Shown piece after piece: positions 20,670-41,146 of a stretch of DNA of 64,000 nt. A model generated the notes under the pieces. That model ran no database searches, was not told the DNA's origin, and was given only the letters and a program-made list of their open reading frames with translations. Origin of the DNA: a virus (Duplodnaviria > Caudoviricetes). Where the stretch lies: IMG/VR virus record IMGVR_UViG_3300029288_000077, positions 64,001 through 128,000 of that record. One strand, given 5' to 3'. Position numbers and translations under genes: made by a program. Positions within the stretch are counted from its first letter, which is position 1. Each line of letters opens with the position of its first letter.

Positions 20670-20709
20670 GGGGTAGGGGACTAAGGTAATAGAGAAAGGG
20701 AGAGATGTC

Positions 20710-21843
20710 ATGAAATTCAACCCGTACTTGGACAAGATGCAGGGCAAGGTCACCATTGACCGAAAAACTGGTGAACCCTTCAACCCGCTGAACTTCTCTG
20801 CAAAGAAGGATGACAGCGGCAAGCGCAAGGTGTCTGCTAGTGAGCGCCTGTTCAACAAGGACAACGAGCTGAACGCTTCCAGCAAGAAAGACGCGCTGCA
20901 GAAGATCGCTGCCCTGTTCGAGATGGTGCAGGACGGCGAGTTCGAAGTCGCCACTCAGCCTGAGGGCTTCAAGGTTGATGCTGCCGAGCAGGATGCCCTG
21001 CTCAAGCAGGCTTATGCCGACCCGTCTGGTGAGGGGTTTGCTAAGCTTGGTCAGCAGATGTTGACCGTGGTGCGCGAGGTCATCGACTACGAAGGCGTAA
21101 CCCGCAAGCTGTGGATGGATCGGCCGGTGAAGGCTGGCGAGACCATTCGGTACGACAAAGACGTGCATGTGGTGGCCTACGTCATCGGTGAAGATGGCGA
21201 GACTCCGCAGAGCGTGGTTGGTGGTAAGTACTTCTTCCCGCCCGAGTTCGAAGTGTCCGCTAACGTGTCCATCGAGCTGAAGGACCAGTACCGGTCGCAG
21301 TACAACATCCTTGAGCGTGCACAGGACAAGGCTCGCCAGGCCATTGAGTACCGCGAAGACCTGGCTGGTATTCGCCTGCTTCGTCGTGCATCCAACGTGG
21401 TTAACACCACCGTTGCGTTTGCTTCGATGAACCTGGGCGCGTTCGAGTCCCTGCGCTACCAGATCGAGCAGCACCGCCTCATGACTGCCGCTTTCCTGAT
21501 TCACCGTCAGGAAGTGTCCGACATCGTGAACGTGCTGACCGCACAGGTTGACCCAGTGACTCAGCGTGAGATCATCATGGCTGGGTACATCGGTCACATC
21601 CTGAATACCGCAGTCATCACCACTGCTGGTACTAACAACATGTACGAGATCCTGCAGCCTGGTGAAGTGTTTGCAGTGACTCTGCCTGAGTACCTGGGCG
21701 GCATCTCGCAACGCAGTGATCTCATGAGCGAGCCTTACACCGAGGCAGTGAACGGCAAGCCCCGGCGCGGGTTCTACTGGTGGGAGATGCTCTGCCTGGC
21801 ACTGATCAACGCCAAGGGCGTTGCCTACGGTCAGAAGATCTAA
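20710..21843 (+). CDS. Major capsid protein (HK97 fold)
   Basis: 377 aa. IDYEGVTRK, FPPEFEVSAN, LERAQDKARQAIEYRED, GYIGHILNTAVI, PGEVFAV, PEYLG. Strongest codon bias in the window. Confidence 0.9.
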   Translation: MKFNPYLDKMQGKVTIDRKTGEPFNPLNFSAKKDDSGKRKVSASERLFNKDNELNASSKKDALQKIAALFEMVQDGEFEVATQPEGFKVDAAEQDALLKQAYADPSGEGFAKLGQQMLTVVREVIDYEGVTRKLWMDRPVKAGETIRYDKDVHVVAYVIGEDGETPQSVVGGKYFFPPEFEVSANVSIELKDQYRSQYNILERAQDKARQAIEYREDLAGIRLLRRASNVVNTTVAFASMNLGAFESLRYQIEQHRLMTAAFLIHRQEVSDIVNVLTAQVDPVTQREIIMAGYIGHILNTAVITTAGTNNMYEILQPGEVFAVTLPEYLGGISQRSDLMSEPYTEAVNGKPRRGFYWWEMLCLALINAKGVAYGQKI

Positions 21844-21876
21844 CCACGAAACGAAAGGGTTGAAAGGAGAGAAATC

Positions 21877-22335
21877 ATGAATCTGAAACTAGCACGGCGT
21901 TACCTGGATTTTGCCGCCACTGAGATGGATCAGAAGGGTCACAAGGACCTGGCCGATCGCATCGACAAGCACGTCGAGCGGCTGGCTTCTGCCGATCAGC
22001 GGATGGTGGACCTGATCGTGCGCGATCTCAAGAAAATCGCTCGCGAGTCCAATCGGCGTGATCGTGGTGTGGATGAAGACGCCAGTGAGCGCACTGATGA
22101 GCGGCCTAGCCGACTGTCCGCTCTGCGGCGTCGGCTGGCACTCCGCAAACGTCTAGCTGCTCGTCGTGAGCCGCTGTCTGAGCGCCGGTTGGCTTCCCTT
22201 CGCAGTCGCCGCAAGGCGCGGATGGAAGAGTATGGCGACGACGGCGACGAGGATCGCAGCACCGCGAGTGATCGGCTGCGCCGGTCACGGTTGGCTCGCC
22301 GAATCCGCGCTCGCCGGGAACGTGACCTAGAATAA
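21877..22335 (+). CDS. Arg-rich (protamine-like) head-associated protein
   Basis: N-terminal helix motif AATEMDQKGHKDLADRID followed by poly-Arg blocks. Co-transcribed with MCP; strong SD. Confidence 0.7.
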   Translation: MNLKLARRYLDFAATEMDQKGHKDLADRIDKHVERLASADQRMVDLIVRDLKKIARESNRRDRGVDEDASERTDERPSRLSALRRRLALRKRLAARREPLSERRLASLRSRRKARMEEYGDDGDEDRSTASDRLRRSRLARRIRARRERDLE

Positions 22336-23995: not shown

Positions 23996-24020
23996 CTCGA
24001 AAATGGTAACATTGTTGGCA

Positions 24021-25241
24021 GTGTTTTTGTCTCATAAAATACGTCTTTATCCAAATGACAAACAGGTGTCTTACCTGAAACGTGCTTGTGGTATCAAGCG
24101 TTTTGCTTATAATTGGGCGTTAGCTGAGTCTAGAAAACTATATGAGCAAGGCATAAAAACTTCCGGTTACGATCTCAGTAAACGATTTAACGCAATAAAA
24201 CGGGAACAGTTTCCTTTCGTACTAGAAGTATCAAAATGGGTGTCTCAAAAAGCCATTTATGATCTTGAAGACGCTTACAAAAATTGGTGGAGTAAACGTG
24301 CGCGTGCCCCCAAATTCAAGAAAAAAGGTAAGTGCAAAGATAGTTTTTATCTGGCCAATGATGCAACAAAAACTGTTGAGCACAGAATTTATATTTCTAA
24401 GTGTGGGTGGGTGCGCATGTCTCAGTCTTTGCGTTTTCCTGGTCACGTGATGTCTGTAGTAATTTCAAGTGAATATGCTAAGTGGCATGCTTCTATCCAA
24501 GTGGAATTGGACGGCACCTGGTCTTGTCCTCATACTTGCAAAACCCAAGCAGTGTGTGGATTGGACATGGGTGTACGTGACTTAGTGGTATTAGATGATG
24601 GCACTAAGTACTTAGCCCCTAGGAGTCTGCGTAAGTCCGAGAAAAAGTTGAAGAGACTGAATCGTGTAGTCTCAAGGAGGGTAAAAGGATCAAACCGTAG
24701 GAAGAAAGCTGTGCATATACTAAGTAGAGTCCATGAGAAAGTGACTAACATACGCAAGGACTGTATACATAAGATCACTGCTAAACTAGTAGAAGACTAC
24801 CGTATCATAGGTATGGAAGATTTGAACGTCAAGGGTATGATCAAAAATCATCACTTGGCCAAGTCTGTGTCTGATGCTGCGTTTGGTACAGTCAAAAGCC
24901 AATTGGAGTACAAGACTGAGCTGTCAGGATCAGTATTAGTCAAAGCAGATCGCTTTTACCCATCGAGTAAGATGTGTTCAAACTGTGGACATGTCTTAGA
25001 CACTTTGCCGTTGCGTATACGTGTTTGGACTTGTCCTGGGTGCGGTGCAGTACATGATCGTGATGTCAATGCTGCTAAAAATTTACTAAATGTCGCCTTA
25101 AGGTATAAGGAGACTGTAAACGCTCGTGGAGTAGAAAGCTCTGGTACTGGTGATTTTACTAGTACGAAACTGTCTACTGTGAAGCGAGTACCCGGCAGCC
25201 GCAGACCAACGGTGGTTTCGGTTCAAGTCCGGGGTTCCTAA
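24021..25241 (+). CDS. tnpB: RNA-guided endonuclease TnpB (IS200/IS605 or IS607 accessory protein); no tnpA in the window
   Basis: HKIRLYP..RFAYNWAL N-terminus, RuvC-I GLDMG, RuvC-II MEDLNV, zinc ribbon CSNC/CPGC, RuvC-III HDRDVNAA. Probable GTG start 8 nt after TTTACA-N16-TAACAT. Confidence 0.95.
   Translation: MFLSHKIRLYPNDKQVSYLKRACGIKRFAYNWALAESRKLYEQGIKTSGYDLSKRFNAIKREQFPFVLEVSKWVSQKAIYDLEDAYKNWWSKRARAPKFKKKGKCKDSFYLANDATKTVEHRIYISKCGWVRMSQSLRFPGHVMSVVISSEYAKWHASIQVELDGTWSCPHTCKTQAVCGLDMGVRDLVVLDDGTKYLAPRSLRKSEKKLKRLNRVVSRRVKGSNRRKKAVHILSRVHEKVTNIRKDCIHKITAKLVEDYRIIGMEDLNVKGMIKNHHLAKSVSDAAFGTVKSQLEYKTELSGSVLVKADRFYPSSKMCSNCGHVLDTLPLRIRVWTCPGCGAVHDRDVNAAKNLLNVALRYKETVNARGVESSGTGDFTSTKLSTVKRVPGSRRPTVVSVQVRGS
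25085..25240 (+). ncRNA. Putative omega/reRNA scaffold overlapping the tnpB 3' end (boundaries uncertain)
   Basis: TnpB guide scaffolds are known to overlap the ORF 3' end. Pairing elements seen: CGCTCGTGGAGTAGA with TCTACTGTGAAGCG, GTACTGGTGA with TTACTAGTAC, CCCGG with CCGGG. Confidence 0.55.
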
Positions 25242-28389: not shown

Positions 28390-29250
28390 TTGAACGATCT
28401 GACTGAATTAGCTATTTTTCGTACAGGACAAACCGGTGTAATAACCTGGTTTGTTAAGAACCATACTACCGGTGACTTGATAGATCTAGGATCTGGTAGT
28501 CGGTTTAGTATGATTGACATAGATAGCAATGTGGAAGTGTTGTCCGAGAATCTAGGTCCCTTGGGTGGTGCTCTTGTAACTAGAGCTGCAGAAGGTACCT
28601 ATCAGTTCTCCGTTGATACTTCTGTTTACCCTGGCAGCTACATAGCTGGTATTTACTGTGTAGTGCCTGGTGAAACTTTCAATGTAAACACTTTCTTCAA
28701 GTCCGTGTCTGCTAAACAGTTTGCTTATGCTGCACAACTGAGGATGACCGTAGATAAAGCAAACAAATCGATGGTGGATTATATAGCTAATATGGATCGT
28801 CCTGCTGGTCCGCCCATTTTGTTGAAGTACGGGTATTCAGACGAGGCGTTAATATATTACATGGAGCGCGGTACGCAGCTAATCAATGCAGTCCCTCCTT
28901 ACACCGCACTAATAGTAGATACATTTCCATTTAGTATCTTTGGTAACATATTGATTGATGCAGCTACCATAGCCACATTGGAAGCACAGGGTATTTTTGC
29001 TATTGACACTGACTTTGATTATGCCTTTGGTGGAAACAGTATGGTCATAGATCACTTTACTAAGCTAAGTGCTTTTGTGCAAAATTTGCTTGGACGATTT
29101 AAGGATGAAGTGTCTGCTTTCAAAAAGCAGTACCTTACCAAGGGTATGGTGTTATACCAATTCCTGCCTGGTGGCATTCGTGACTTGCGGTACTTGTCTG
29201 CTATGCCAGATGGATTCTGGTCAAGACTGTTCAGTGTATCATTCGGGTGA
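28390..29250 (+). CDS. Head-tail adaptor/connector protein
   Basis: Beta-rich N-domain plus helical domain (YSDEALIYYM...INAVPP; DFDYAFGGNSMVID); located after head genes. Confidence 0.6.
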   Translation: MNDLTELAIFRTGQTGVITWFVKNHTTGDLIDLGSGSRFSMIDIDSNVEVLSENLGPLGGALVTRAAEGTYQFSVDTSVYPGSYIAGIYCVVPGETFNVNTFFKSVSAKQFAYAAQLRMTVDKANKSMVDYIANMDRPAGPPILLKYGYSDEALIYYMERGTQLINAVPPYTALIVDTFPFSIFGNILIDAATIATLEAQGIFAIDTDFDYAFGGNSMVIDHFTKLSAFVQNLLGRFKDEVSAFKKQYLTKGMVLYQFLPGGIRDLRYLSAMPDGFWSRLFSVSFG

Positions 29251-29500: not shown

Positions 29501-29926
29501 ATGGCTCACAACTCGTGGGGTAATTTTCAAGTAGCTACCGTCACGGTTGAACCGGGTGGTTATGTAGATGTGTTTCCTATACGGTCCAACACTGTTTACA
29601 AAAACGTGTCTGTTGGTGTGATACCACTAGATGATCATATCACTTACAAGCACGCTGTTGGCATTTATATGTATGAAGAGTTAGAAGAGTCACATATATA
29701 TAATGACGACAGCAAACACATTTCATTTATGACATTGCCAGATAAGATCTTTCCTCCAAATGTAGGATTAAAAACAAACCCAGAAATGGTCCGGGCTGCT
29801 TTATATGAACCTGCCTTGAACGTAATAAAGATTCGTATAGCAAATGCTGAGGCTGAGACGAGGCATTTCCAGGTGTATGGTACATTTGAATGCCTTGATA
29901 CTGTCATGAAAGCTGTAGGTAAGTAA
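29501..29926 (+). CDS. Small beta-sandwich virion-type protein (no signal peptide)
   Basis: Beta-strand pattern; AAAGGA SD. Confidence 0.55.
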   Translation: MAHNSWGNFQVATVTVEPGGYVDVFPIRSNTVYKNVSVGVIPLDDHITYKHAVGIYMYEELEESHIYNDDSKHISFMTLPDKIFPPNVGLKTNPEMVRAALYEPALNVIKIRIANAEAETRHFQVYGTFECLDTVMKAVGK

Positions 29927-29927
29927 C

Positions 29928-30260
29928 ATGATAAATCACTATAAGTGGGGCCTGCAAGACGGACAAGCAGATCCAGACAGCGGAAGTGGTGTGCCTGCTG
30001 GTTCTGATTATGGTGCTCCAGAGGTGTTTACTGGTGCTTTAGCAGGAGATGTCACACTTACGTTTACGCGAGCCACCAAGTCTGTGACTATACACAATAC
30101 GCATGATTCAGAGCACTTGGAGGCGTCTTTGGATGGTGGGTTAACTTGGATTGACTTTGGGCCGTATGGTGAGCGTACCTATGATGTTAGCATACAGCAA
30201 CTTATGTTAAGACTGGTAGCTGGCAATAGTTCCTATGCTGTGGTTGGGGTGTTGTCATGA
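29928..30260 (+). CDS. Small beta-sandwich virion-type protein (no signal peptide)
   Basis: ATKSVTIHNT...SLDGGLTW pattern. Confidence 0.6.
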   Translation: MINHYKWGLQDGQADPDSGSGVPAGSDYGAPEVFTGALAGDVTLTFTRATKSVTIHNTHDSEHLEASLDGGLTWIDFGPYGERTYDVSIQQLMLRLVAGNSSYAVVGVLS

Positions 30261-30772
30261 AGAAGATAGCTTTTCTATTTTTGCTGGTTTTTGCTGTTGC
30301 TGCCCAAGCACAAGTAAATCAACAGGTAGATTGCCGCCTTAGAGATGCCACAAACCCAACTACTCGTGCTGCTGTGGGTGCTGCCACCGGGTCTACATTC
30401 GCAGTCTCTATCATAGGACTAACAGTAAAATCTGCTAATTATTTTTACAATGGGAGTGCCTGGGCTCCCATGATCCCTCCTTGGGGTACAGGATCCCTTT
30501 CTTCTGCAACAAATTGTGTTGCCATGGACACGGTTGGCACAGAGATTACAATTGTTCCTGGGTGGCACAAAATAAAAGCCATAAGCAACAGTGCTTGTTT
30601 GTTGTCGGGTGCAGTTGGTGTGTTAGCCTCCTTGACATGCGGAGCAGGTACGATGGGGTATCAATTAAGCGAAGGGGAACGCTTAGAAATTTACATACCA
30701 GACGTGCGTTTGGCAGTAAAAGCACCAACTAGCGTAACCGGTGATCTCTTGTGCGTAATTCGCATATACTAA
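30257..30772 (+). CDS. Signal-peptide-bearing small beta protein
   Basis: MKKIAFLFLLVFAVAAQA: basic n-region, hydrophobic core, AxA site. Confidence 0.7.
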   Translation: MKKIAFLFLLVFAVAAQAQVNQQVDCRLRDATNPTTRAAVGAATGSTFAVSIIGLTVKSANYFYNGSAWAPMIPPWGTGSLSSATNCVAMDTVGTEITIVPGWHKIKAISNSACLLSGAVGVLASLTCGAGTMGYQLSEGERLEIYIPDVRLAVKAPTSVTGDLLCVIRIY

Positions 30773-32868
30773 TAGCGGTCGCATATATTTTTTCTGTAAG
30801 CACATCTTTATCAGAAGATGCGGGGGAATTGTATCCGAAGTGGAGCGCCTCGTTTTCAGGATCTGATTACATAGATCCGTGTGTGGTGCGCGCCGGGGTT
30901 AAGGTATGCCCGACGTTGGACATGAACTTCGACCAGGCAGTTGCCGCGCAGGTAACCCCTGACGTGGGGCCAGCAGGGTTTGTACTGGATGTGGGGGGAA
31001 CTCCTGTACGTGTGCCTGATGGAACTTACCCCGATGGATTTGATGGTTCTAGTGGTAATGCTTGGGATATGCAAGGCGGGTATCTATACAGAGCGCACGC
31101 CAGCGGTGGAAGTGCGTTCAATCCTAACACAGCATTCTCCGCTTGCGTCGTGGTTACTCCGAACACCGCCATCACAACCAACAGCAGCCTACTTGGAAAG
31201 TATGACAGCACGTTCGCCAACCGCTCCTGGATGCTGTACGCCACCGCCGCAGACGGAGGATCGGCCGCAGCACTGTTTTCTGACAACGGCACCACCGATG
31301 CTGGGCACGTAACTGTACTGACTCGCACACTCGGGTTCCGCCCGCACATGACCAGCGTGGTTTGCATCACCTGGAGGAACGCCGGGGACGGTACCTCCCC
31401 GGCCGCGCTGTACGTCAACCGACTAGCCGTGGCTGGTACCGCCGCCGCACAGGCCCCCATCTACGCTTCCACGGCTCCGTTCTCTATTGGCTGCCAGAAC
31501 GTAGGCACGTACCCCTTCCCAGGACAGATCCACAGAGTCACCTTCTGGCAGGATGTGGAGTTGACTGCTGCTGAAGTGCAGCACTACCAGGCAGGTTATT
31601 TTGGGTACTTGGACAACAACGGGGTGACCTCACCAACATTTTACACAGGACTTAGTACAGATATTCCTCCATCTATCCCTTTTGCTAAAGCAGACACTGT
31701 AATTGAACCATTTATAGGAATGGCTGGTCAGGGGTTTTCTCGTGTAGGAGAATTAGTAGAAGGGGTTGGTGGCATTGCTTGGAATGAACCAACTATAAAT
31801 CTGTTACCAAACCCGTCTGCAGAATATGTAGATGAGGATCCGGAGGGGCCTGGAGGAACGTACCGTCCATTAGGTTGGGAGTTTCTCTGTAGTGACTGCG
31901 ATCCTTGGCTGCAAGTATCTGACGATCATTCCGCACACGGTAGCAATGCTATGGTTATTGGTCGTGCAGACGAATTCACTACTGGAGAGGCTTATTCAAC
32001 GTGTGTCGTTGGCTCTGGTCCTAAAAATTATTATCTGGATTTTAGATCTATGACCTCGGCGCACACCACTCCTGGGGGAACGGGGTTTTTTTCTGTATAC
32101 GCAGTTAGTTGGAGCGGGGCTGCTTGCGATGGTTCAAGACTAAGCGAGCCGCTGCTTTTAACAGTAGAAGATGTGGAGGGTGCTGGTTGGGTGTGGCATC
32201 AGGATGCTTTTACAAGTCACGCAGACGCCGAAAGTATAAATCTGTGGTTTGTTTGGACTGATGGAGAGCCAGCATCCACAATGTGGATAGATGCTGTTCA
32301 AGTTAGAGAATCAACATACCCTGTTTACGGGTTTTGCGGGCACAGTGCAACCGCTATAGCGACCTCCGTTTGCGCACAAATCGCTCCGAGTATTGAGCCA
32401 AATCCCTTGAATATCTCTAATACAGGAATAAGCTTAAAAGTGATCCAGCCCTACAGCATCAGCGAGATTACTGGCGTAGGTTGGTATGTAATATACTCTA
32501 GAGCAACCTCCGGAGCAAACAATTTACCTAATATCCAACTTGATACTGGTGGGGGGTACATCCGTAGTACTGTTCATTCTGGAACTGCTGGGGCGACAGA
32601 CTCCTGCCGAAACTTTGGTGATCCCTGGGCTAAGGATGTGCAGCACGAGATTCATTTTAGTTACACTAACAACGTTGGCGGAGATGGTTATATCTGGCAT
32701 GAAGTAGACGGCACGGACTACAATAACTTTATCTGCTTTGGGGTAGGTCCTGGGCGAGGGCTGGTAAACGGGATCGGTACAAGCCTCTGTATCGGCCACC
32801 CCTATAGTTATGCAAAAGGCTCTGGTTACGTACAAGATTTTTATGTGTACTTGAGATCTCTTCCCTGA
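30751..32868 (+). CDS. LamG/concanavalin-A-like plus carbohydrate-binding-domain fibre-like protein with putative signal peptide
   Basis: SLLGKY...RSWML...ALYVN...FSIG...FPGQIHRVTFW...LTAAEV (LamG); NLLPNPSAE...MWIDAVQV (CBM-like). Confidence 0.7.
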   Translation: MRNSHILIAVAYIFSVSTSLSEDAGELYPKWSASFSGSDYIDPCVVRAGVKVCPTLDMNFDQAVAAQVTPDVGPAGFVLDVGGTPVRVPDGTYPDGFDGSSGNAWDMQGGYLYRAHASGGSAFNPNTAFSACVVVTPNTAITTNSSLLGKYDSTFANRSWMLYATAADGGSAAALFSDNGTTDAGHVTVLTRTLGFRPHMTSVVCITWRNAGDGTSPAALYVNRLAVAGTAAAQAPIYASTAPFSIGCQNVGTYPFPGQIHRVTFWQDVELTAAEVQHYQAGYFGYLDNNGVTSPTFYTGLSTDIPPSIPFAKADTVIEPFIGMAGQGFSRVGELVEGVGGIAWNEPTINLLPNPSAEYVDEDPEGPGGTYRPLGWEFLCSDCDPWLQVSDDHSAHGSNAMVIGRADEFTTGEAYSTCVVGSGPKNYYLDFRSMTSAHTTPGGTGFFSVYAVSWSGAACDGSRLSEPLLLTVEDVEGAGWVWHQDAFTSHADAESINLWFVWTDGEPASTMWIDAVQVRESTYPVYGFCGHSATAIATSVCAQIAPSIEPNPLNISNTGISLKVIQPYSISEITGVGWYVIYSRATSGANNLPNIQLDTGGGYIRSTVHSGTAGATDSCRNFGDPWAKDVQHEIHFSYTNNVGGDGYIWHEVDGTDYNNFICFGVGPGRGLVNGIGTSLCIGHPYSYAKGSGYVQDFYVYLRSLP

Positions 32869-32881
32869 TAGGAGACAGAAG

Positions 32882-33268
32882 ATGCATACAATGCTGTTTC
32901 TGATTTGGCTTCTTGCCCAAGTAAACCCGTTTCCTGTATATGAAAGTACTACTACAGTAGCTGTTGCAGGTACTGCTACTACAGCCTGCGTGGCTCAGAA
33001 GGTTTTGATTTATCAAAATATGACGTTTACGGTTAGGAACACAGGCGCTAATGTCCTTACCGCATGTACGGTAGAGCAATCTGCTGATGGTATAACCTAT
33101 AGTACTGTATCAGATTCGTGGACAGACTGTAGCGAACTTGCAGCGGGCGCACAAACAACGTGGTCGATAAGTGGACATAGCTTCAAGTACATTCGAGTGC
33201 GTGTCACTGCTGCTGCGGCACCCAATAATACAACCGTGTCTTGTATCATCACGGGTAATGCGGGGTAA
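32882..33268 (+). CDS. Small beta-sandwich protein with short hydrophobic leader
   Basis: MHTMLFLIWLLAQ; VEQSADGITY...FKYIRVRVT; 4 Cys; AGGAG SD. Confidence 0.7.
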   Translation: MHTMLFLIWLLAQVNPFPVYESTTTVAVAGTATTACVAQKVLIYQNMTFTVRNTGANVLTACTVEQSADGITYSTVSDSWTDCSELAAGAQTTWSISGHSFKYIRVRVTAAAAPNNTTVSCIITGNAG

Positions 33269-33271
33269 ACC

Positions 33272-34951
33272 ATGCATCGTTTGCTTATTGCACTATTGCT
33301 TCCTATACTGTTGGGTGCATCCCCTCCGTCCGTTCTAGAGGGAGATACTCAAACATTTTTAGGTCCAATAAAAGTAGTGGGTGAAATTTATCGGTGGTTG
33401 GATAGCGTGTTGGGCACGGCTACTTTGGCGACGGTAGCTCCGATAACCTTATACGTAGAGACTACGGGGAACGATTCGAATGACTGCCTCTCCGTTAGTA
33501 CAGCGTGTTTAACTATACAAGAGGCCATCAATAGAATCCCTAAAAATATAGGCCACACAGTATCAATAACGGTTGGATCTGGTAATTTTGCTGGTTTTGT
33601 TGTCAGTGGTTTTATTGTAACAGACCAAAATCAATTTTCTGTTCAGGGCACACTTGGTGCCTATTCTCCTGCAACAGGGTTGCAAACAGGTGTTGCTGAT
33701 GGTGCGGGGGGTAGCACCGAAAAACTAGTAGACAGTGATGGTGGATGGACCGTTAACAATCTAAAGGGGTCTCTTTTAAAGATAGGAACCGAATACAGAT
33801 TTATTAGGGACAATACAGCTACAGAAATAGAGGTAGTTGGTGCATTCTCTGCTACTTGTAACGGAAAAACTTATGAAATTGTTGAGTCTAAAACGGTGAT
33901 TACTTCCAATGCATCAGTGGGTAGCGCTAGAGTCTATATTACCGCCAATGTAGCACGATCGGGTGGCATTCGAATTCTCAATTTGAAATCTTCTGGAGGG
34001 ACATATGGGTTCTTTGCAGATGGGACATCTGGGACGCGTTTTCAATATCTACACGCATATGGTTTCAGTGGTGTTGGATTTATAAATCAATTCGTAGATT
34101 ATGCTACTATATTTGATATAGCCGCTTCCGCTGGTACGGGTACCTCCTACGGCATTTTTATTTCGCACTCACATATGAGTAGTGTCGGTAGGATGTTTTC
34201 ATTTTCTAGTACTGGGGCCTACGGTATTAGGGCATACTCCACAAGTATAAATTCGCCGTCTTATTGGGTAGTATATGATTTAACTGGCACATCTGTATAT
34301 GGCATAGCCTTGGAAGCAATGATGAATATGGAATTAACTGGCACCAATAGGATTAAAAATATTACTGGGTCTACAAGTGTATATGGGGCCGGTTTTTATT
34401 CTGGGGCCTATTATAAGATAAGTGGAACGCTACTGATAGATACGATTACTAAAACTGGAGCTGTCGATTTAACTACTGGCATTGGCTTATATCAAGGACA
34501 ACCATGTGACGTAAACCTTCACAATATTACAGTAACAAACTGTACTAGTCATGGAATTTCTGCTACAAGATCTACTAGTATTATGCTCGTTACTGCTAGC
34601 CTTACAAATAACGATGGGTATGGTTTGCATGCCATACAAAATTCTAATATAATTTTTCGTAATGGAACGCAAACTGTTTCTGGCAATGCCTTAGGAGGAG
34701 TATATGCAGGCACTTCGGCCAAGGTTCTTTTAGACAACACAGATGGGTCAAATACTGGATATGGTATAACCGTTGAACAGGGTGCAAGAGTCACGATTGA
34801 TAGCGGAACAGGGATTACGGGAACCACAAATAATATTTTGTTAGACGATGTGGAGAAAACCTATGCTGGTGATTTTGCAGTAAACAAAGACACAGAAATT
34901 GGTGTGTATGGCTCTGTTGTACAGCGTTATGATGGGCTCGACTTTATGTAG
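33272..34951 (+). CDS. Right-handed beta-helix (pectate-lyase-like) tailspike-like protein with signal peptide
   Basis: MHRLLIALLLPILLGA; LYVETTGNDSNDCLSVSTACLTIQEAINRIPK; repeated YGI/GI beta-helix rungs. Confidence 0.75.
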   Translation: MHRLLIALLLPILLGASPPSVLEGDTQTFLGPIKVVGEIYRWLDSVLGTATLATVAPITLYVETTGNDSNDCLSVSTACLTIQEAINRIPKNIGHTVSITVGSGNFAGFVVSGFIVTDQNQFSVQGTLGAYSPATGLQTGVADGAGGSTEKLVDSDGGWTVNNLKGSLLKIGTEYRFIRDNTATEIEVVGAFSATCNGKTYEIVESKTVITSNASVGSARVYITANVARSGGIRILNLKSSGGTYGFFADGTSGTRFQYLHAYGFSGVGFINQFVDYATIFDIAASAGTGTSYGIFISHSHMSSVGRMFSFSSTGAYGIRAYSTSINSPSYWVVYDLTGTSVYGIALEAMMNMELTGTNRIKNITGSTSVYGAGFYSGAYYKISGTLLIDTITKTGAVDLTTGIGLYQGQPCDVNLHNITVTNCTSHGISATRSTSIMLVTASLTNNDGYGLHAIQNSNIIFRNGTQTVSGNALGGVYAGTSAKVLLDNTDGSNTGYGITVEQGARVTIDSGTGITGTTNNILLDDVEKTYAGDFAVNKDTEIGVYGSVVQRYDGLDFM

Positions 34952-35036
34952 TAATTTTCTAAGTGGTAAATTTCTCGCCGTCCCTTAAATCTTCTCTGTT
35001 ACCACGCAGTATAATAATCAGCAAATAGGAGGTCCC

Positions 35037-35168
35037 ATGAACAAGCAGACTACCAAGATCCTAAACTCCGTGAAAGAGTTCATTTACAAGTACAAGATTC
35101 CTGTAATTCTTGTTGCTTTACTGGTGGTTGCATCTACCGCAATCACCTGTGCGACCTGCGGTGCTTAG
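35037..35168 (+). CDS. 43-aa single-TM peptide ending TCATCGA
   Basis: AGGAGGT SD; TATAAT at 35010-35015; below the ORF-track cutoff. Confidence 0.6.
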   Translation: MNKQTTKILNSVKEFIYKYKIPVILVALLVVASTAITCATCGA

Positions 35169-35173
35169 CCGCC

Positions 35174-35374
35174 GTGTACGATTTTACACCTATGTGGACA
35201 CCTAAAATTAGGCGCATAGCCGAGTGTATGCACCAACAGCGCGAGTGGTGGGTGAATCGAAGGTCTTCTAAGGAAACTGTGCCGTTCGAGGCACTACCAG
35301 AATGTGATAAATTGGCCTACAAAATGGTAGCGGAACGCATATTGAAGATCACAGAAGATGAAAAAGACTATTGA
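35174..35374 (+). CDS. Hypothetical protein (RyR-like IAECMH...VPFEALPECDK)
   Basis: Weak motif resemblance. Confidence 0.45.
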   Translation: MYDFTPMWTPKIRRIAECMHQQREWWVNRRSSKETVPFEALPECDKLAYKMVAERILKITEDEKDY

Positions 35375-35497
35375 AAAGCTTTTTATTGGTGGTATGAAAG
35401 TGTTGGGCACATGCGCGTACGTGTTCTGTTGCTTGTGCGCCTATGTGGATCATAAGATTAAAGAAGGCGATAGGTTAGAGAAGCTAGGTATGCGAAA

Positions 35498-35743
35498 ATG
35501 ACACGTCCCGATATAGATAAGCTAGTGCGTGATGTTTATCTGGACCCGAGCGTGCCTTCTCATGCTCTACGTGCAATAGACACCTTCGTAAGATACATTC
35601 AGCACTTAGAACATGAACTAGATTTTACGGAACCTTATGACGCCCCTGCTAAGATAGCGAAGTTGAAGCTGGAGAAGCAGTTCGATCCCAGGAACGTGCC
35701 GGAGTTTCTAGATATCGTGAGGAAACAACATGACAAAGATTAG
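35498..35743 (+). CDS. Hypothetical protein
   Basis: Overlaps the next gene start. Confidence 0.5.
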   Translation: MTRPDIDKLVRDVYLDPSVPSHALRAIDTFVRYIQHLEHELDFTEPYDAPAKIAKLKLEKQFDPRNVPEFLDIVRKQHDKD

Positions 35744-36191
35744 AGTATATGCAAACCAAGAAGATCTTCAACTCGTTTTTGGAGACGAACTATTTGGAAT
35801 GGATATTCTTAATAACGATCCGTGGGCACTGGCGCAATTGTCCGACATCAACATCCTTTCTAATAAAGAACTTCTTGCTAGCTTTGTTGATGTGAATTTT
35901 GAAGGAGAAGGTGGCGTAGTTGTAGCGGCCATTTTCGATGCTTATGACGGCGAATCGTACGACTTTGATACAGTAGTGCATCCTAAGTACCAGGGGCGTG
36001 GTTTAGGAACACAGCTAATTGAAATAGCTATGGATCGGTTCAAGAGTGAAATATTAGAGATGAATCCTGATGCGAAGTTACATTTAGACGTAGTAAACCC
36101 GGGCATGGTTGATTTTCTAAAAACGAAGTATGGCCTAGAGGTAAAGGAAGAGGTTGGAAGTCACATAATTATGGGTGCTATTCTTGAGTAA
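35730..36191 (+). CDS. GNAT acetyltransferase
   Basis: VVHPKYQGRGLGTQLI acetyl-CoA-binding motif A; LDVVNP. Confidence 0.85.
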   Translation: MTKIRVYANQEDLQLVFGDELFGMDILNNDPWALAQLSDINILSNKELLASFVDVNFEGEGGVVVAAIFDAYDGESYDFDTVVHPKYQGRGLGTQLIEIAMDRFKSEILEMNPDAKLHLDVVNPGMVDFLKTKYGLEVKEEVGSHIIMGAILE

Positions 36192-36342
36192 CCTTTGCAA
36201 ATTTTGTCATAAGCCGTTTACGAAAACTAGTTCTAGACAAGTATATTGTAAACGACCGGAATGCATAGCTAGAAAACGCGCACGGATGCGGTACGTAAAA
36301 AACGTGTTAGGAGTCTCGTGGGCAAGATATGAGAAAAGATAA
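36184..36342 (+). CDS. 52-aa zinc-finger protein (CKFCHKPF...YCKRPEC)
   Basis: TTG start; fills the gap exactly; treble-clef Cys pattern. Confidence 0.55.
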   Translation: MSNLCKFCHKPFTKTSSRQVYCKRPECIARKRARMRYVKNVLGVSWARYEKR

Positions 36343-36766
36343 AATAATACTGTTTCTAGACATAGATGGGGTTCTAATTTGCAAGGGTGAGGAACAGCCG
36401 CGTTTAGAGGCTGTTTCTTCTATAAACAAATTAATAAAAATTTTTGATGCATATATAGTTATAACGTCTGCTAGAAGAATTGGAAAATCAACTGAAGAAC
36501 TTCAAGAAAAAATAGAGAAATACGGTATTTTGGGTATTGTTGTAGGAAAAACAAAAGATGCACCTATTATAAATAGAAGAGGAAATGATATTTATTCTTA
36601 CATAAAAGAAAATGGAGTACAAAAGTATGTTGTTGTGGATGACGTAGATCCAATTCAACTGATCCCTCCCTTAGATAAAAGTTGTGTTTTGCATGTCCCG
36701 TTAGGATTTAGGACCGGAATAACACGAGGTATGGTAGACAGATTCTTGGAGAATAGAATAATATGA
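36329..36766 (+). CDS. Second HAD phosphatase (Swiss-army-knife-like), paralog of 15952..16407
   Basis: LFLDIDGV, ITSARRIG, RGNDIYSY, YVVVDD, GITRGMVDRFLE. Confidence 0.8.
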   Translation: MRKDKIILFLDIDGVLICKGEEQPRLEAVSSINKLIKIFDAYIVITSARRIGKSTEELQEKIEKYGILGIVVGKTKDAPIINRRGNDIYSYIKENGVQKYVVVDDVDPIQLIPPLDKSCVLHVPLGFRTGITRGMVDRFLENRII

Positions 36767-37107
36767 CTTCCATTAACCATGATCGCACAATACGTATGTT
36801 GTATGGTGAGTGTTCTGGGATTGAAGAGTTGGATTGCACTTATTGTGTGTGTACGGTATGTGGATCCTCATATATAGAGGTGTTCCCTAAGCACGCGTTA
36901 GATATCAGCAAAATGAAGAAGCTTACTATTGACCAAGCAAAAAATTTGGGTTTATATGAAGGCGCATATAAGGAGCACCTTCTGTGTGAAACGTGCCAAC
37001 AAAAACGAATAAAACACGAGGATATTTTACAGATACTTAGTTTTGTGTTTTGTGTCTTGTCGGTGATTGCATTGACAGTACTATTCTCTGTTGGAGGAAT
37101 TCCTTGA
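36763..37107 (+). CDS. Zinc-ribbon protein with C-terminal TM anchor
   Basis: CTVC...CETC, hydrophobic tail. Confidence 0.55.
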   Translation: MTSINHDRTIRMLYGECSGIEELDCTYCVCTVCGSSYIEVFPKHALDISKMKKLTIDQAKNLGLYEGAYKEHLLCETCQQKRIKHEDILQILSFVFCVLSVIALTVLFSVGGIP

Positions 37108-37574
37108 GTACAAAGCGAAAAGGCTGGCATGAATACTTTATGAATTTGGCTGAACTTACATCAACAAGGGGCACGTGTGATCGAGCTAGAGTGGGCTGCG
37201 TTCTGGTTAAAGATAAATTAGTTATTGCTGGTGGATATAATGGCTCGCTTCCTGGTGCGGATCATTGTGATGATATAGGACACTTTATGCAAGAAGGTCA
37301 CTGCCGACGCACGAACCATTCGGAAGCAAATATGATAGCTTCCGCAGCCAAACGCGGCGTTTCTACTGATGGTGGAGTTCTCTACTGTACGCACACTCCA
37401 TGCATTACGTGCCTAAAATTGCTTGTGGCAGCAGGGGTTCATACTGTATATTATCTTAATGAATATAGGATAGAAGATGTGCCAGATTTTGTTAAGGAGA
37501 AAGTAAGGTTGGTAAAATTCAACAAGAACCTAGACACTCTTAATGAAGTAATTGTTAGAAAGGATTATTTGTGA
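37104..37574 (+). CDS. dCMP deaminase (ComEB-like)
   Basis: WHEYFM, RGTCDRARVGCVLV, GYNG, HSEAN, PCITC. GGAGG SD before TTG. Confidence 0.9.
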   Translation: MSTKRKGWHEYFMNLAELTSTRGTCDRARVGCVLVKDKLVIAGGYNGSLPGADHCDDIGHFMQEGHCRRTNHSEANMIASAAKRGVSTDGGVLYCTHTPCITCLKLLVAAGVHTVYYLNEYRIEDVPDFVKEKVRLVKFNKNLDTLNEVIVRKDYL

Positions 37575-38023
37575 TGGAAGAACTATATGTAAACACGGAG
37601 CGTATGAAGCATCGCCCCGATAAACCAAAATCTAATCTTGAATTTTGGAAAGTGTGGGTGCCTGTTATAGTTACGCTTGTAACTGTGTTTGGCTCTCTTG
37701 TTGGTATTTACATCCAGGGAAATAAATCTGCTTCTAAGATCGAGTACATAGTAAGCCAAATCAATGATGCAATAATTCCTAGGCTAGAAAAAGCACTTGA
37801 AGGTAATAATACAGAAATAAAGATTTTGCGTGAGCGGGTGGCTGTTCTAGAAAAAATGAGCGAGGTTCGAAGATCTAGAGTAGTTCCAACCACATTTGGT
37901 TTTGGTAATCCATTGGATCTTCCGGCACCTGCTGTAAAGACGCTTTCTAAACCAGCTACAGAGGCACTAAAGACTTCTACTAAATATGATATACCTAGAT
38001 TGCAACATGAACAGGTAGAGTAA
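37571..38023 (+). CDS. Single-TM coiled-coil protein (possible lysis-related)
   Basis: One TM helix followed by LRERVAVLE coiled coil. Confidence 0.5.
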   Translation: MMEELYVNTERMKHRPDKPKSNLEFWKVWVPVIVTLVTVFGSLVGIYIQGNKSASKIEYIVSQINDAIIPRLEKALEGNNTEIKILRERVAVLEKMSEVRRSRVVPTTFGFGNPLDLPAPAVKTLSKPATEALKTSTKYDIPRLQHEQVE

Positions 38024-38025
38024 TC

Positions 38026-40320
38026 ATGAAGAAACTGTTAATATCCGCTATTGCTGTTGTTTTTCTGTTTCCGTCCGCTGCTTATGCTGTTGCCTGCGTA
38101 TCAAACGGAACTGGTGGTGGCAACTGGAGCGATGAAGCTACATGGACTGACGCCTCGTGCGGTGCAGCACATTTTCCTATATCTGGAGATTCTGCTACCA
38201 TAGCCGCAGGAGACACAGTAACAATAGATGGAGATCTTACGGTAGGCACTTCTCCCGCAAGTGCTGTTACTTATGATTTAGATATTTCTGGCACGCTGTA
38301 TTGGCCAAACAATCCAGGCATAGATATGATTTTTACACTACAGTCCTCCATGAGAATAAACGCGGGAGGCATATTCCAGATTGGGGATTCTGGAACCCCG
38401 TTAAATTCTGCAGTTCGTGCCCACATACTGTTTAATAATACATCTCCTGTCCCCGATCAAAAATACAAAATTCTTGTAAATGGTGGCAAATTGTATGTGT
38501 ATGGGAACTCAAGTTATTTTATGACATCAGGAGCAAATTACAGGGCAAGGATTTTTGGGTGCATTCCGGACTGCAACGCCGGTGCCGGTAGAACTATAAT
38601 GCTAGACCGTGCTGTATATTGGCCTGCATCAGCCAGTCTCACACACGATGCGATATTGATCGGAATAGGAGGCAACGTATCAACTGCCCCGGCTGCTGGT
38701 GACGATGGGGAACTAATTACTAGTTGGGGATCTCCTGGTTCTAGCAGCATCAACGGGGTAACACTTACAGAAAATCATATGATTGGGGATATTGTAGTAA
38801 ACGTGTCCCGAAACGTTCTCTTTCAGGCGGATAGTGCTACTTATCATAGCATAGTAGAAACAACTGCTACAAATAATCCATACGATATAAATTATGCGAG
38901 GTTCGATGAATTTGGAGATAACACTACCACAGGATCTGGTATAACATTCAATGCTGCATCTAATACTGTTGGAACAATAAATCATGTATCCGTAACTAAT
39001 TGTGAAGATGGTGCCGGTACTACTTGTTTTTATATTAACTCTTCTGGATGGACTAAATTTGAAGGAAATACGGCATATGAATCAAGATCAACTGGAAATG
39101 GATTTTATTTTTTAGGTAATCAGTATCCAGCAGGAACATTTGAAATAAAAGATTGTACATATATTGAGGGACCACTAGGAAATGGAGATGGTATTGAATT
39201 CGCTTCAAACACTGTAAAAACTGATTTAACTGGATTTTGGTCATCTAACGCAAATTCTGGAATAAAAATAACTGCATCATATACTGATACTTATTCTTGT
39301 ATTCTTCATGCTACCACTACTTATGGGGTACAAATTACAAGCCCAAATTCTACGTATTATCAGTATGTAAAATTAAAAATAGATTCATGTGAAATAAGGA
39401 ATAGTGAATCGAATTCAATATATTTGCTCTCATTTGCAAATTTAATTTATTCAAATAATGATATAGATGGAGCAGAAGCTACTTGCTTCAATGTTGCTGG
39501 TAGTTTTTATGGTTATTTTGAAAATAATACTTACGATAGATGCAATACGAGCAATACAACAAACAGAGCAGGATTTGAAATACTTAATTCTGACAATAAT
39601 TTTGATGTATATGCAGTAAATGAATCATTTGGAGCAACAACCGCAAACAATAAATCAAATATAAATATAGATTCACCAACATTCAATGATACAATTACTG
39701 GATCTAATAGATATGTATGCAACAATTGCTTACTCGCAGAAGTTAATAATCCGATTACATGTAGCTCAATGCCAACAGATGGAATAATTATTCCATGTCT
39801 TACATATAATAATGCCGTGTATATTCCAGAGGAATCTTTTTATTCATTACATAATAAAGATCAAGTTGAAAATGCAAATTACGGATGGGGTCCTGGGGGA
39901 ATGGTATTTACTAGAGAAACCGTGACTGTCGTGGATAATACATTGAATGTTAAAGTTCAGCCAGGAAACGCTACTGACTATGGGTACCTTCCTTTAGGAA
40001 CTATAAGCGTTGTGCAAGGACAAACTGTTACTGTAAACGTACAAATACGCAAAGACGAATCTCAAAGTGCAGGATTTCGGCCAAGATTGGGTTTAGAAGG
40101 GGCAGGATTTAACAGGTACACCACATACGATGAAATGAGCGATGCTATAAACACATGGGAGACGGTCACTGTCACTGGTGTGGCCACTTACTCTGGAAGC
40201 GTTCATATTTATTTAGGCGTTAAAAATAATTTGTCTGGTGCGAACAACTATGAGCCGGAATGGCCACCAACACTAGAAATATATGCAGATGGAATCAGTG
40301 TTACAAAGACAGGGCCATGA
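38026..40320 (+). CDS. G8-like plus beta-helix fibre/adhesin-like protein with signal peptide
   Basis: MKKLLISAIAVVFLFPSAAYA; GGGNWSDEATW...P..GDSATIAAGDTVTID; Asn-rich beta-helix rungs; CBM-like C-terminus. Confidence 0.75.
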   Translation: MKKLLISAIAVVFLFPSAAYAVACVSNGTGGGNWSDEATWTDASCGAAHFPISGDSATIAAGDTVTIDGDLTVGTSPASAVTYDLDISGTLYWPNNPGIDMIFTLQSSMRINAGGIFQIGDSGTPLNSAVRAHILFNNTSPVPDQKYKILVNGGKLYVYGNSSYFMTSGANYRARIFGCIPDCNAGAGRTIMLDRAVYWPASASLTHDAILIGIGGNVSTAPAAGDDGELITSWGSPGSSSINGVTLTENHMIGDIVVNVSRNVLFQADSATYHSIVETTATNNPYDINYARFDEFGDNTTTGSGITFNAASNTVGTINHVSVTNCEDGAGTTCFYINSSGWTKFEGNTAYESRSTGNGFYFLGNQYPAGTFEIKDCTYIEGPLGNGDGIEFASNTVKTDLTGFWSSNANSGIKITASYTDTYSCILHATTTYGVQITSPNSTYYQYVKLKIDSCEIRNSESNSIYLLSFANLIYSNNDIDGAEATCFNVAGSFYGYFENNTYDRCNTSNTTNRAGFEILNSDNNFDVYAVNESFGATTANNKSNINIDSPTFNDTITGSNRYVCNNCLLAEVNNPITCSSMPTDGIIIPCLTYNNAVYIPEESFYSLHNKDQVENANYGWGPGGMVFTRETVTVVDNTLNVKVQPGNATDYGYLPLGTISVVQGQTVTVNVQIRKDESQSAGFRPRLGLEGAGFNRYTTYDEMSDAINTWETVTVTGVATYSGSVHIYLGVKNNLSGANNYEPEWPPTLEIYADGISVTKTGP

Positions 40321-40595
40321 ATAAAGAAATTGAAAATATACTTAGTTTTTTGTGTTCAGAATTGAAGAGTGTAATTGAAGGAGTGTTTTACAATGATACT
40401 ACCTTCAACAATGAATTGTGTGTTTATGTAATTGTACGTGAACATTTTAACAGGTTCTATGAAAAAATACTATTAACAGAAGGAAAAATAAATCAGACGT
40501 ATAAAACACCAGTTACAATACATGTGTGGGCATCTCAAGGTCGCACGATAGAAAAATGCAGACCTCCTAGTACCAAGCAGTGGGTATCTAAGTGA
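40317..40595 (+). CDS. Hypothetical protein
   Basis: Coupled by ATGA/GTGA overlaps on both sides. Confidence 0.5.
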   Translation: MNKEIENILSFLCSELKSVIEGVFYNDTTFNNELCVYVIVREHFNRFYEKILLTEGKINQTYKTPVTIHVWASQGRTIEKCRPPSTKQWVSK

Positions 40596-41146
40596 CTCCG
40601 TGGGGTGATGGGCTTCCTGGGTTAGATGACGTCCCGATTGGTGGGTGGGGCGACGGACTTCCTCTTGGGCCGTCTACTGTTGGACCTCAAGTCGTGTCTG
40701 CTGTGGCTGTGGATTCTACTACCACAAGACTTACCTACAATAAAGAAGTACAACATTCAAACCCAGGTAACATCAACGATTCTTTGAATCCAGCGAATTA
40801 TGCTTTTTCTGGTGGTTTATCTGCGGTGAGTGTGTCTGTTAACCAAGCCAATCCAACTGTAGTAGATATTATAGTAACGCCTGCAATGGAGAACATTAAC
40901 TACACTGTTGTAGTGTCTAATGTAGAAGATCTTGCGGGCAATCTGGTAGATCCACTATATAATTCTGCTACGTACTTGGGACCGGAAAATGACGAAGCCA
41001 ACGATTTTATTGCTGAAATACTCATTGGTGATGAGGTGGTGTGGAGTGCAAACAGTTTTGTAAACCAACAAAAAATAAAAATTGACGTGGCACGATTTTA
41101 CGGTAAATTTCCTCTAACGTTTAGGATAAGGGGTATTAGGATATGA
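40592..41146 (+). CDS. Bacterial Ig-like domain virion-type protein
   Basis: WGDGLP twice at the N-terminus; PQVVSAVA...NPANY...YTVVVSNVEDLAGN. Confidence 0.7.
   Translation: MTPWGDGLPGLDDVPIGGWGDGLPLGPSTVGPQVVSAVAVDSTTTRLTYNKEVQHSNPGNINDSLNPANYAFSGGLSAVSVSVNQANPTVVDIIVTPAMENINYTVVVSNVEDLAGNLVDPLYNSATYLGPENDEANDFIAEILIGDEVVWSANSFVNQQKIKIDVARFYGKFPLTFRIRGIRI

Follow-up and report, generated by a model that had tools for sequence, protein, structure and literature searches.

Signal-peptide-like leaders on tailspike-like and lectin-like proteins encoded in the structural module of an uncultured contractile-tailed phage

A leader-bearing gene cassette in the virion module

The DNA analysed here, called the window throughout, is a stretch of 64,000 nucleotides comprising bases 64001-128000 of contig C2 (183,765 bp), which belongs to a bin of 10 contigs and 1.26 Mb. 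Since the ends of C2 overlap by 127 bp, closing it into a circle, and C2 has no DNA in common with the other contigs of the bin, we regard it as the complete genome of a phage, which is uncultured, contractile-tailed and about 184 kb in size, with nearly every gene on the + strand. Among deposited phages, the uncultured 'Virus Rctr197k' comes closest, with a portal protein that is 37.5% identical. Our subject is a cassette in the structural region of the window in which five genes for small beta, lectin-like and beta-helix proteins begin with a signal-peptide-like leader. The genes of the cassette and those with which they are compared are the following, each being named below by its first position.

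28390-29250, + strand: head-tail connector-like gene marking the upstream border of the cassette (weak match to PHROG 17327, connector, E 0.0015)
29501-29926, + strand: leaderless small protein of 141 aa, conserved near the cassette, without a family match
29928-30260, + strand: leaderless jelly-roll protein of 110 aa, its stop overlapping the start of 30257
30257-30772, + strand: predicted exported protein of 171 aa, leader MKKIAFLFLLVFAVAAQA followed by a 'Q..CRLRD..T' N-domain
30751-32868, + strand: predicted exported LamG/concanavalin-like lectin protein of 705 aa, GTG start, leader RNSHILIAVAYIFSVSTSLS
32882-33268, + strand: DUF6385-like beta-sandwich protein of 128 aa, weak leader MHTMLFLIWLLA followed by QVNP
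33272-34951, + strand: predicted exported right-handed beta-helix protein of 559 aa, leader MHRLLIALLLPILLGA, C-x6-C in a helix-cap motif
37571-38023, + strand: single-pass membrane and coiled-coil protein of 150 aa with an N-terminal transmembrane segment, just upstream of 38026
38026-40320, + strand: predicted exported G8, beta-helix and CBM4-like protein of 764 aa, leader MKKLLISAIAVVFLFPSAAYA
40592-41146, + strand: leaderless protein of 184 aa with two N-terminal WGDGLP repeats
60556-61149, + strand: leaderless beta-helix-cap protein of 197 aa in the baseplate module, Cys-free cap motif GVGSRENPFQTIE

The five leader-bearing open reading frames (ORFs; 30257, 30751, 32882, 33272 and 38026) are present at the coordinates, and with the N-termini, that a preliminary description of this DNA had assigned to them. 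Leaders were called by a heuristic that combines hydrophobicity, charge and the residues at -3/-1, together with conservation in homologues. In a uniform scan of the 289 ORFs of C2, these five showed the strongest acid-free hydrophobic N-termini, with a Kyte-Doolittle value over an 8-residue window of 2.9-3.4, top among the 289; the exceptions were TnpB and a baseplate protein, both of which are without the rest of the leader pattern. Four of the five genes are consecutive, a run that would turn up among five randomly picked genes with a probability of about 5e-6. The n-region carries K or R within the first 2-4 residues in 30257, 30751, 33272 and 38026, and the -3/-1 sites of the five leaders are AQA, SLS, LLA, LGA and AYA. 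The leader of 32882, which has His only and no K/R, is the weakest; in its orthologue on the related contig L002 an in-frame stop occupies the leader position, so that the leader is absent, and its relatives on L003 and L008 have clear leaders. In-frame stops lie 3-27 nt upstream of each of the five starts, 38026 has zero alternative starts within its first 45 codons, and none of the other four has a leader-skipping alternative start before codon 26-39. Thus, the leaders are unavoidable, since no alternative start would remove them.

Gene 29928 overlaps 30257 and 30257 overlaps 30751, the other adjacent genes of the block being a few bases apart, and each small exported gene (30257, 32882) stands directly in front of a large one (30751, 33272). 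Promoter and terminator consensus scans inside the block gave results no better than those for shuffled sequence. Since the genes lie closely packed among those of the virion and the block showed no internal signals, we presume that they are expressed late in infection. A PHROG search left most of the tail genes without a match and returned nothing useful for the cassette genes, barring the weak connector match of 28390. Homologues of 28390 with 45-49% identity lie directly upstream of the leader-bearing block in L008/L009 and in L021; the head-tail adaptor that had been proposed upstream of the cassette is thus called from this conserved position together with a weak PHROG match (E 0.0015). 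Homologues of 29501 (33-35% identity) are adjacent to the cassette in L003 and displaced in L002 and L021.

Leader conservation and position-specific cysteines

All 12 database homologues of 38026 (38-67% identity), as well as its relative on L008, begin with M and K/R, followed by a hydrophobic stretch and a site of the A-x-A type; among them the leader drifts in sequence while keeping its physico-chemical form, and the -3/-1 residues are AYA, AHA, SWA or LAA in all 38026 relatives. In the 33272 family, seven closer relatives (database proteins P0002-P0006 and P0008, plus the L003 gene at 13423) have a leader, with VLA, VQA or LGA at -3/-1, and four distant ones are leaderless. As to whether homologues lack the leaders, a question raised in the preliminary description, those of 38026 (12/12) and the closer ones of 33272 were thus found to keep them. 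For 30751 there is one relative with a leader-like N-terminus (L002, 25% identity), and another, on L021 and 884 aa in length, is leaderless.

The leaderless relatives of 38026, on L012, L013 and L007, are 29-32% identical to it, and they start with M-A-x-I-[ST]-S-N-G-T-G-G-G-x-W-S, which aligns one residue past the predicted cleavage site. Since these relatives begin at the predicted mature N-terminus, the leader is a discrete N-terminal add-on. On L012 and L013 they sit after baseplate-like genes, that is, in the tail-fibre slot. Related contigs carry five to seven leader-bearing genes per module (six in a row in L003, at least five in L008/L009), and the same leader type occurs on unrelated folds, in small as well as large proteins. 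Taken together, these sequence features strongly support Sec-type export of the cassette proteins. We also considered 38026 as a lipoprotein cleaved by signal peptidase II, and rejected it, as a Cys after the site (AVAC) occurs in 8 of the 15 leader-bearing members and the others read AAY or AVY.

The cassette proteins had been described as Cys-rich. The counts given for them are correct; however, their Cys content (0.9-2.9%) exceeds only that of core virion proteins (0-0.85%) and is not above that of the phage proteome (1.78% pooled), and we therefore rejected raw Cys-richness as evidence for disulfides. The leaderless fibre-like protein encoded in the baseplate module at 61765-63894 (+) contains 16 Cys (2.26%), its L011 homologue containing 6; being leaderless yet this rich in Cys, it indicates that Cys-richness alone is no marker of exported proteins in this phage.

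The positions of the cysteines, on the other hand, follow the leader. In the 38026 family C179, C183, C334, C565, C579 and C591 are present in 12-15 of the 15 leader-bearing members and in none of the three leaderless ones, and in the 33272 family the cap motif ...N[DN]CL..TACLTIQ, with its C-x6-C, is found in 8/8 leader-bearing and 0/4 leaderless members, where the cap reads G...L or P...F instead, although relatedness of the members inflates all these counts. The internal contrast drawn earlier with 60556 was confirmed, as this leaderless protein exists and its cap motif GVGSRENPFQTIE is Cys-free. The LamG proteins follow the same trend, with 14 Cys in both leader-bearing proteins (30751 and its L002 relative) versus 4 in the leaderless L021 one. 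Leader gain and paired-Cys gain, as read from the alignments, thus go together in two unrelated families, and these position-specific gains co-occurring with the leader support oxidative folding of the proteins.

It could be argued that the proteins are never exported and assemble in the cytoplasm as ordinary fibres, the N-terminal segment being removed by a phage protease or serving as a membrane-active or assembly segment. Matrishin et al. suggest that the prohead protease likely cleaves the signal peptides of Porphyromonas phage capsid proteins (PMC10367356), and the present phage encodes a prohead protease at 17604; in addition, the leaderless LamG and small DUF6385-like versions on L021, in the same module, indicate that such proteins can work without a leader. 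Against this stand the small residues at -3/-1 and the positive n-region, kept over 38-67% identity, the leaderless relatives that start precisely at the predicted cleavage site, the conserved Cys pairs gained only together with the leader, and the occurrence of one leader type on unrelated folds, both small and large. We consequently hold cytoplasmic assembly of these proteins to be improbable, and are fairly confident that a tailspike-derived, glycan-directed protein set is exported and oxidatively folded outside the cytoplasm.

Folds, partner genes and genomic context

Of the large proteins, 30751 contains a Laminin_G_3 domain (PF13385) at residues 121-277 with 34.7 bits against a cut-off of 27.6 (E 2.3e-8). 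The 33272 protein falls just under the cut-off of Pfam Beta_helix (23.9 versus 25.9 bits), and its relatives conserve the N-terminal part and swap the C-terminal part. In 38026, G8 (PF10162) was detected at residues 50-162 with 25.6 bits (cut-off 22.9), and CBM_4_9 (PF02018) was under its cut-off (21.1 versus 25.9 bits); the C-terminus of the structural model matches CBM4 with a TM score by target of 0.43-0.52. In this model (pLDDT 83, pTM 0.82) a G8 cap is followed by a long beta-helix, with a CBM4-like sandwich at the C-terminus. Foldseek placed phage capsule depolymerases and the ectodomain of TMEM2 first. By VIA-align the best structural match was the TMEM2 ectodomain (Z 22.7, 522 residues aligned, G8 plus helix), the alginate epimerases AlgE4/AlgE6 and periplasmic AlgG reached Z of about 21, and many tailspikes were at Z 16-21, among them those of Sf6 (Z 20.8, 338 aligned, root-mean-square deviation 3.4) and K64-1 S2-4 (Z 18.6). 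Virion spikes thus have this fold in common with polysaccharide enzymes that are secreted or periplasmic, so that the fold does not tell the two apart.

Tailspike depolymerases (Sf6, P22, HK620, CBA120 TSP2/3, Klebsiella phage K64-1 S2-4 and the K1 lyase) have a helix body similar in length to that of 38026, and share with the cassette a position in or near the fibre slot and a modular exchange of the distal part. However, they have an N-terminal particle-binding domain and no signal peptide, whereas 38026 combines a leader of the cleavable type with a G8 cap, a CBM4-like module at the C-terminus and the leader-linked Cys columns. Its predicted mature form opens directly with G8, its leaderless fibre-slot relatives likewise being without a separate anchor domain, and mature 33272 would have about 45 residues ahead of the helix-cap motif. 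TMEM2/CEMIP, which are hyaluronidases built of G8 and a beta-helix, and AlgE4/AlgG fold like 38026 and act on polysaccharide outside the cytoplasm; they differ in being eukaryotic or cellular and only 10-14% identical, 38026 being encoded in a virion module. Additional leader-bearing genes in relatives have LamG or CBM4-type domains or nothing recognisable. Sequence searches of the PDB with the alignments A1, A3 and A5 gave nothing useful, a single-protein scan for viral relatives of 30751 found none, and searches of deposited phages yielded one weak Curvibacter phage match with 38026 and nothing useful with P0085 (a member of the 32882 family) or 29928.

Given that bacterial enzymes of secreted or periplasmic type (AlgE4, AlgG, PL6 lyases, GH28) are among the nearest folds, the genes might be moron-type or auxiliary genes, encoding secreted adhesins or polysaccharide-foraging enzymes that serve the host or phage-host ecology and are unrelated to adsorption, release or the virion. 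We consider this highly improbable, as the families were found only on phage-like contigs, with weak matches in two metagenome-assembled genomes, a search of the rest of the 1.26-Mb bin with 33272 (the one cassette protein for which this search was run) found no homologue, and the genes, which occupy fibre slots, are closely packed among structural ones.

The small protein 32882 matches DUF6385 (PF19912) at 26.5 bits against a cut-off of 26.8, CARDB being marginal; within its family P0085 is over that cut-off (28.6 bits) and other members are below it, and there are weak galactose-binding-like matches. A full HMMER search with 32882 retrieved 58 representatives (P0047-P0104), in which the domain of about 105 residues is always C-terminal and of which 37 bear leaders. 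In many full-length members the mature part starts with Q..(S/C)RIRD..T, as mature 30257 does (QVNQQVDCRLRDATNPT), and the alignment of 30257 with full-length members extends over its first ~75 residues. By these alignments, 30257 and 32882 match the N-domain and the C-domain, respectively, of a single exported family, which in this phage are encoded by two genes. Relatives of 30257 are found on L002, with the leader present, and in P0046, with a hydrophobic N-terminal segment in alignment A4. Gln follows the site directly, as [A/G/S] then Q, in 22 of 40 leaders of the small family, compared with 1 of 16 in the large cassette proteins. In the long members P0088 and P0099 the middle part (A4, columns ~130-500) is made up of variable-number repeats FYDG.N..RW.G ... 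AP(Y/F)V, which suggest an extendable stalk.

A homologue of the leaderless 29928 (37-53% identity) lies directly upstream of an exported-family member in all seven contexts examined, namely the window, L002, L003, L018, L019, L020 and L021. The model of 29928 is a single jelly-roll (core pLDDT ~95) with a disordered Gly-rich N-terminus and a perfect Asp-box (SLDGGLTW); fold searches found only generic jelly-roll or cupin neighbours, the nearest being viral turret/spike jelly-rolls and Ena spore-fibre subunits, at non-specific Z values. Directly before the 29928 homologue, L019 (92-499) and L021 (7600-7989) encode a protein of 129-135 aa with hydrophobic segments (…AWYLGCTTLCYLFIQVLR…), for which no counterpart was found in the window. 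On L021 a leaderless small DUF6385-like protein (196 aa) directly precedes the leaderless LamG protein (884 aa) in the same module. Small and large neighbours share their leader state, except in the degenerate L002 case, which suggests that they may act jointly in one compartment.

The wider structural region contains the following landmarks.

54-1730: portal
17604-18464: prohead protease
24003-25241, + strand: TnpB transposase, inside the head region
59131-60549: Baseplate_J-like protein

After the candidate capsid gene, and ahead of the head genes that come next, there is also an ORF on the opposite strand (20479-21711, -; 410 aa, no PHROG match), within an island of 56% GC at about 20000-22000 of the window, the genome having 40-45% GC otherwise.

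The position of 38026 varies among relatives. In L008/L009 the connector homologue precedes, and the first tail gene follows, the whole leader-bearing block, 38026 homologue included; non-structural genes stand between 38026 and the rest of the cassette in L002 as well as in the window; and in L011 a leader-bearing 38026 homologue directly follows the Baseplate_J gene, succeeded by a short form of 40592, a 60556 homologue and homologues of the fibre-like 61050/61765. A TnpB/IS605 OrfB-type copy, 63% identical to that at 24003-25241, is located directly after the 38026 homologue of L002 (11896-13101); copies at different sites indicate that the element moves within the phage lineage, a possible reason for the rearranged position of 38026. 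In the more distant relative Rctr197k none of the structural genes bears a leader, so that the cassette is specific to a sub-lineage. The L002 counterpart of the 37571 protein is 69% identical, and the stop of its gene overlaps the start of the 38026 homologue there; in L008/L009 and L011 it is absent beside the 38026 homologue. In three genomes the 40592 gene lies on the downstream side of the 38026 homologue, the two being direct neighbours in L011. Its product has a pair of N-terminal 'WGDGLP(L)' repeats, an Ig-like middle part that is not always present, and a C-terminal domain of some 50 residues that is conserved; the WGDGLP motif occurs nowhere else in the bin. Complex prediction of mature 38026 (residues 22-764) with 40592, run with controls, scored 0.00, 0.34 and 0.00, which speaks neither for nor against binding.

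This layout brings up the possibility of assembly in two compartments, in which exported appendages would mature outside the cytoplasm and join cytoplasm-built particles at or after lysis, captured by an adaptor that has no leader and is part of the virion, for which the 29928 jelly-roll and the WGDGLP protein 40592 would be candidates. It would account for cassette genes standing in the fibre or neck slots of the structural module, for leaderless homologues holding the tail-fibre slot in other phages, for the direct coupling of leaderless 29928 to the exported family in seven loci, for the likeness of its fold to viral turret/spike jelly-rolls (at non-specific Z), for the joint travel of 38026 and 40592 through three genomic contexts, and for the conserved N-terminus and swapped C-terminus in receptor-binding-protein style. 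However, mature 38026 and 33272 have no recognisable particle-binding N-domain, starting with G8 and some 45 residues before the cap, respectively, and at its baseplate the phage has leaderless fibre candidates of its own (60556, 61050 and 61765). Since the virion keeps these, the exported set looks accessory. We know of no tailed phage that adds parts outside the cell, and our literature searches found none. In view of both sides, we regard assembly in two compartments as a serious but less probable alternative.

Host, known systems and the site of action

The host bears on where exported proteins would end up. The main chromosome of the bin, C1 (775 kb, completeness 97.5%), is that of a bacterium of the candidate phyla radiation (CPR), its HisRS clustering at >=90% with Candidatus Nomurabacteria proteins; looking up RpoB in the atlas yielded no taxon. 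It encodes penicillin-binding proteins, a type I signal peptidase and two DsbA-like proteins; BamA, LpxC and VKOR were searched for in C1 and not found. Its own short leaders resemble the phage leaders, which fits C1 as the host and does not discriminate. Comparing unambiguous starts only, we found Shine-Dalgarno motifs at a frequency of 0.35 near versus 0.08 far in the phage (0.59 in its relative L002 and 0.64 in L003), but 0.07 versus 0.08 (n=420), hence no enrichment, in C1. As C1 is without Shine-Dalgarno use, the phage has it and the two share no DNA, the CPR bin-mate was set aside as host. The bin itself looks chimeric, C2, C4, C5 and C6 being enriched in Shine-Dalgarno motifs (0.33-0.70 near versus 0.00-0.09 far) and C1 not. 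Gln directly after the cleavage site, the Q-rule of Bacteroidetes (PMC10367356; see also PMC10653852), brought up a Bacteroidota host; this was rejected, as the present lineage uses Shine-Dalgarno motifs strongly and a Bacteroidota phage control does not (0.04 versus 0.08). Thus, going by these sequence signals, the phage probably infects neither the CPR bin-mate nor Bacteroidota. The earlier proposal that the proteins are exported and disulfide-folded in the periplasm is supported in its first two parts, through leader conservation and through the Cys gains that accompany the leader, whereas 'periplasm' cannot be claimed, the only clue to the host, the bin-mate chromosome, being doubtful.

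By the textbook, tailed phages assemble wholly in the cytoplasm, and their fibre and spike proteins are expected to be without export signals. Our literature searches turned up no account of tail fibres or spikes that carry signal peptides. Matrishin et al. (2023) described Sec-targeted proteins of Porphyromonas gingivalis phages, adapted to host secretion rules (PMC10367356); the signal peptides reported there are on capsid proteins, spanins and the products of five unknown genes, with no mention of fibres or spikes.

Another parallel is the cultured Cellulophaga phage phi10:1 (NC_021802), in which gp091-gp094 (structural protein, virion structural protein, pectate lyase and tail fiber) are annotated 'experimental MS/MS proteomics' on virions in the notes of the GenBank record, MS/MS standing for tandem mass spectrometry. 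These four proteins, together with gp095, a pectate lyase annotated by similarity, have leaders of the form M-K-K, hydrophobic run and A, then Gln. Like the cassette, they form a run of consecutive leader-bearing tail-end genes; they differ in belonging to a siphovirus with a Bacteroidota host, in a Shine-Dalgarno frequency of 0.04 versus 0.08 as opposed to 0.35-0.64 in the present lineage, and in following the Q-rule, which in the present cassette only the two small proteins do. No sequence homology was detected between the leader-bearing proteins of phi10:1 and those of the cassette. By analogy, phi10:1 raises the odds that such proteins associate with the particle and adds to the case for assembly in two compartments, although the MS/MS data may reflect a co-purifying secreted protein. 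Because the present lineage uses Shine-Dalgarno motifs and shares no sequence with the Bacteroidota phages of the same pattern, the trick of assembling in two compartments would have arisen more than once; in this specific form, with Sec-secreted, oxidatively folded tailspike-like and lectin proteins captured by virions at or after lysis through a leaderless adaptor, we find it unlikely.

The explanation that we favour, with a probability of roughly 0.5, is that the cassette encodes accessory enzymes and lectins that act on the surface polysaccharide of the infected cell late in infection. The Sec-exported proteins of this set, which would be particular to the lineage, would bind surface polysaccharide or cut it, and would have arisen from tail-fibre or tailspike-type genes to which a leader of about 20 residues was added. 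The set consists of two small proteins, the halves of one exported family, and three large lectin/beta-helix proteins. The leader would carry them over the cytoplasmic membrane, with signal peptidase I as the presumed cleaving enzyme, and disulfide bonds absent from the leaderless relatives would form there. Their job may be to clear or mask receptors and matrix by working, outside the cytoplasm, on glycans of the infected cell itself (capsule, slime or wall), which would let progeny escape instead of being lost on debris; some of the exported proteins may also stay stuck to released particles. This fits the glycan-directed character of the domains and folds (LamG; G8, beta-helix and CBM4; DUF6385/galactose-binding-like) and the finding that the phage has no signal peptidase, the sole S26 match of the bin being located on C1.

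Several points weigh against this explanation. Export and cleavage are predictions from heuristic leader calls and from homologues. Late expression, which is compatible with release or with a role against readsorption, is presumed from gene order, and cutting of polysaccharide is predicted from the fold only. The genes stand between the connector and tail genes, or after Baseplate_J in L011, as those of virion-borne receptor-binding proteins do, and a conserved N-terminus with a swapped C-terminus is likewise expected of such proteins. Finally, phi10:1 argues by analogy that leader-bearing tail-end proteins can be particle-associated rather than free.

Phage-encoded proteins of the host envelope are known from T5 Llp, phi80/T1 Cor, lambda Bor/Lom and T4 Spackle, which are Sec-dependent, act on the envelope of the infected cell and are often receptor-blocking. 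Each of them is a small lipoprotein or a protein of the outer membrane, produced early or from a prophage, and none is related to fibres. The cassette shares with them phage origin and predicted Sec dependence, and differs in that it alone comprises sets of five to seven glycan-directed proteins.

The comparison of leader-bearing with leaderless homologues makes export of these proteins hard to dismiss, and no published assembly scheme explains export signals on tailspike-like proteins. Their occurrence in a large contractile-tailed, Shine-Dalgarno-using lineage is independent of the Bacteroidota phages in which the pattern is otherwise mainly seen. In practical terms, annotation pipelines label such genes 'tail fibre', which matters for the prediction of host range and depolymerase activity from phage genomes, and expression of phage depolymerases may need oxidative folding. 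The cultured Cellulophaga phages that have the pattern, together with their virion MS/MS data, make it testable in the laboratory now. If the proteins are free or on the cell surface, they would represent a neuraminidase-like receptor-clearing strategy built from duplicated spike genes, and if they join the particle, assembly over two compartments would be a new principle.

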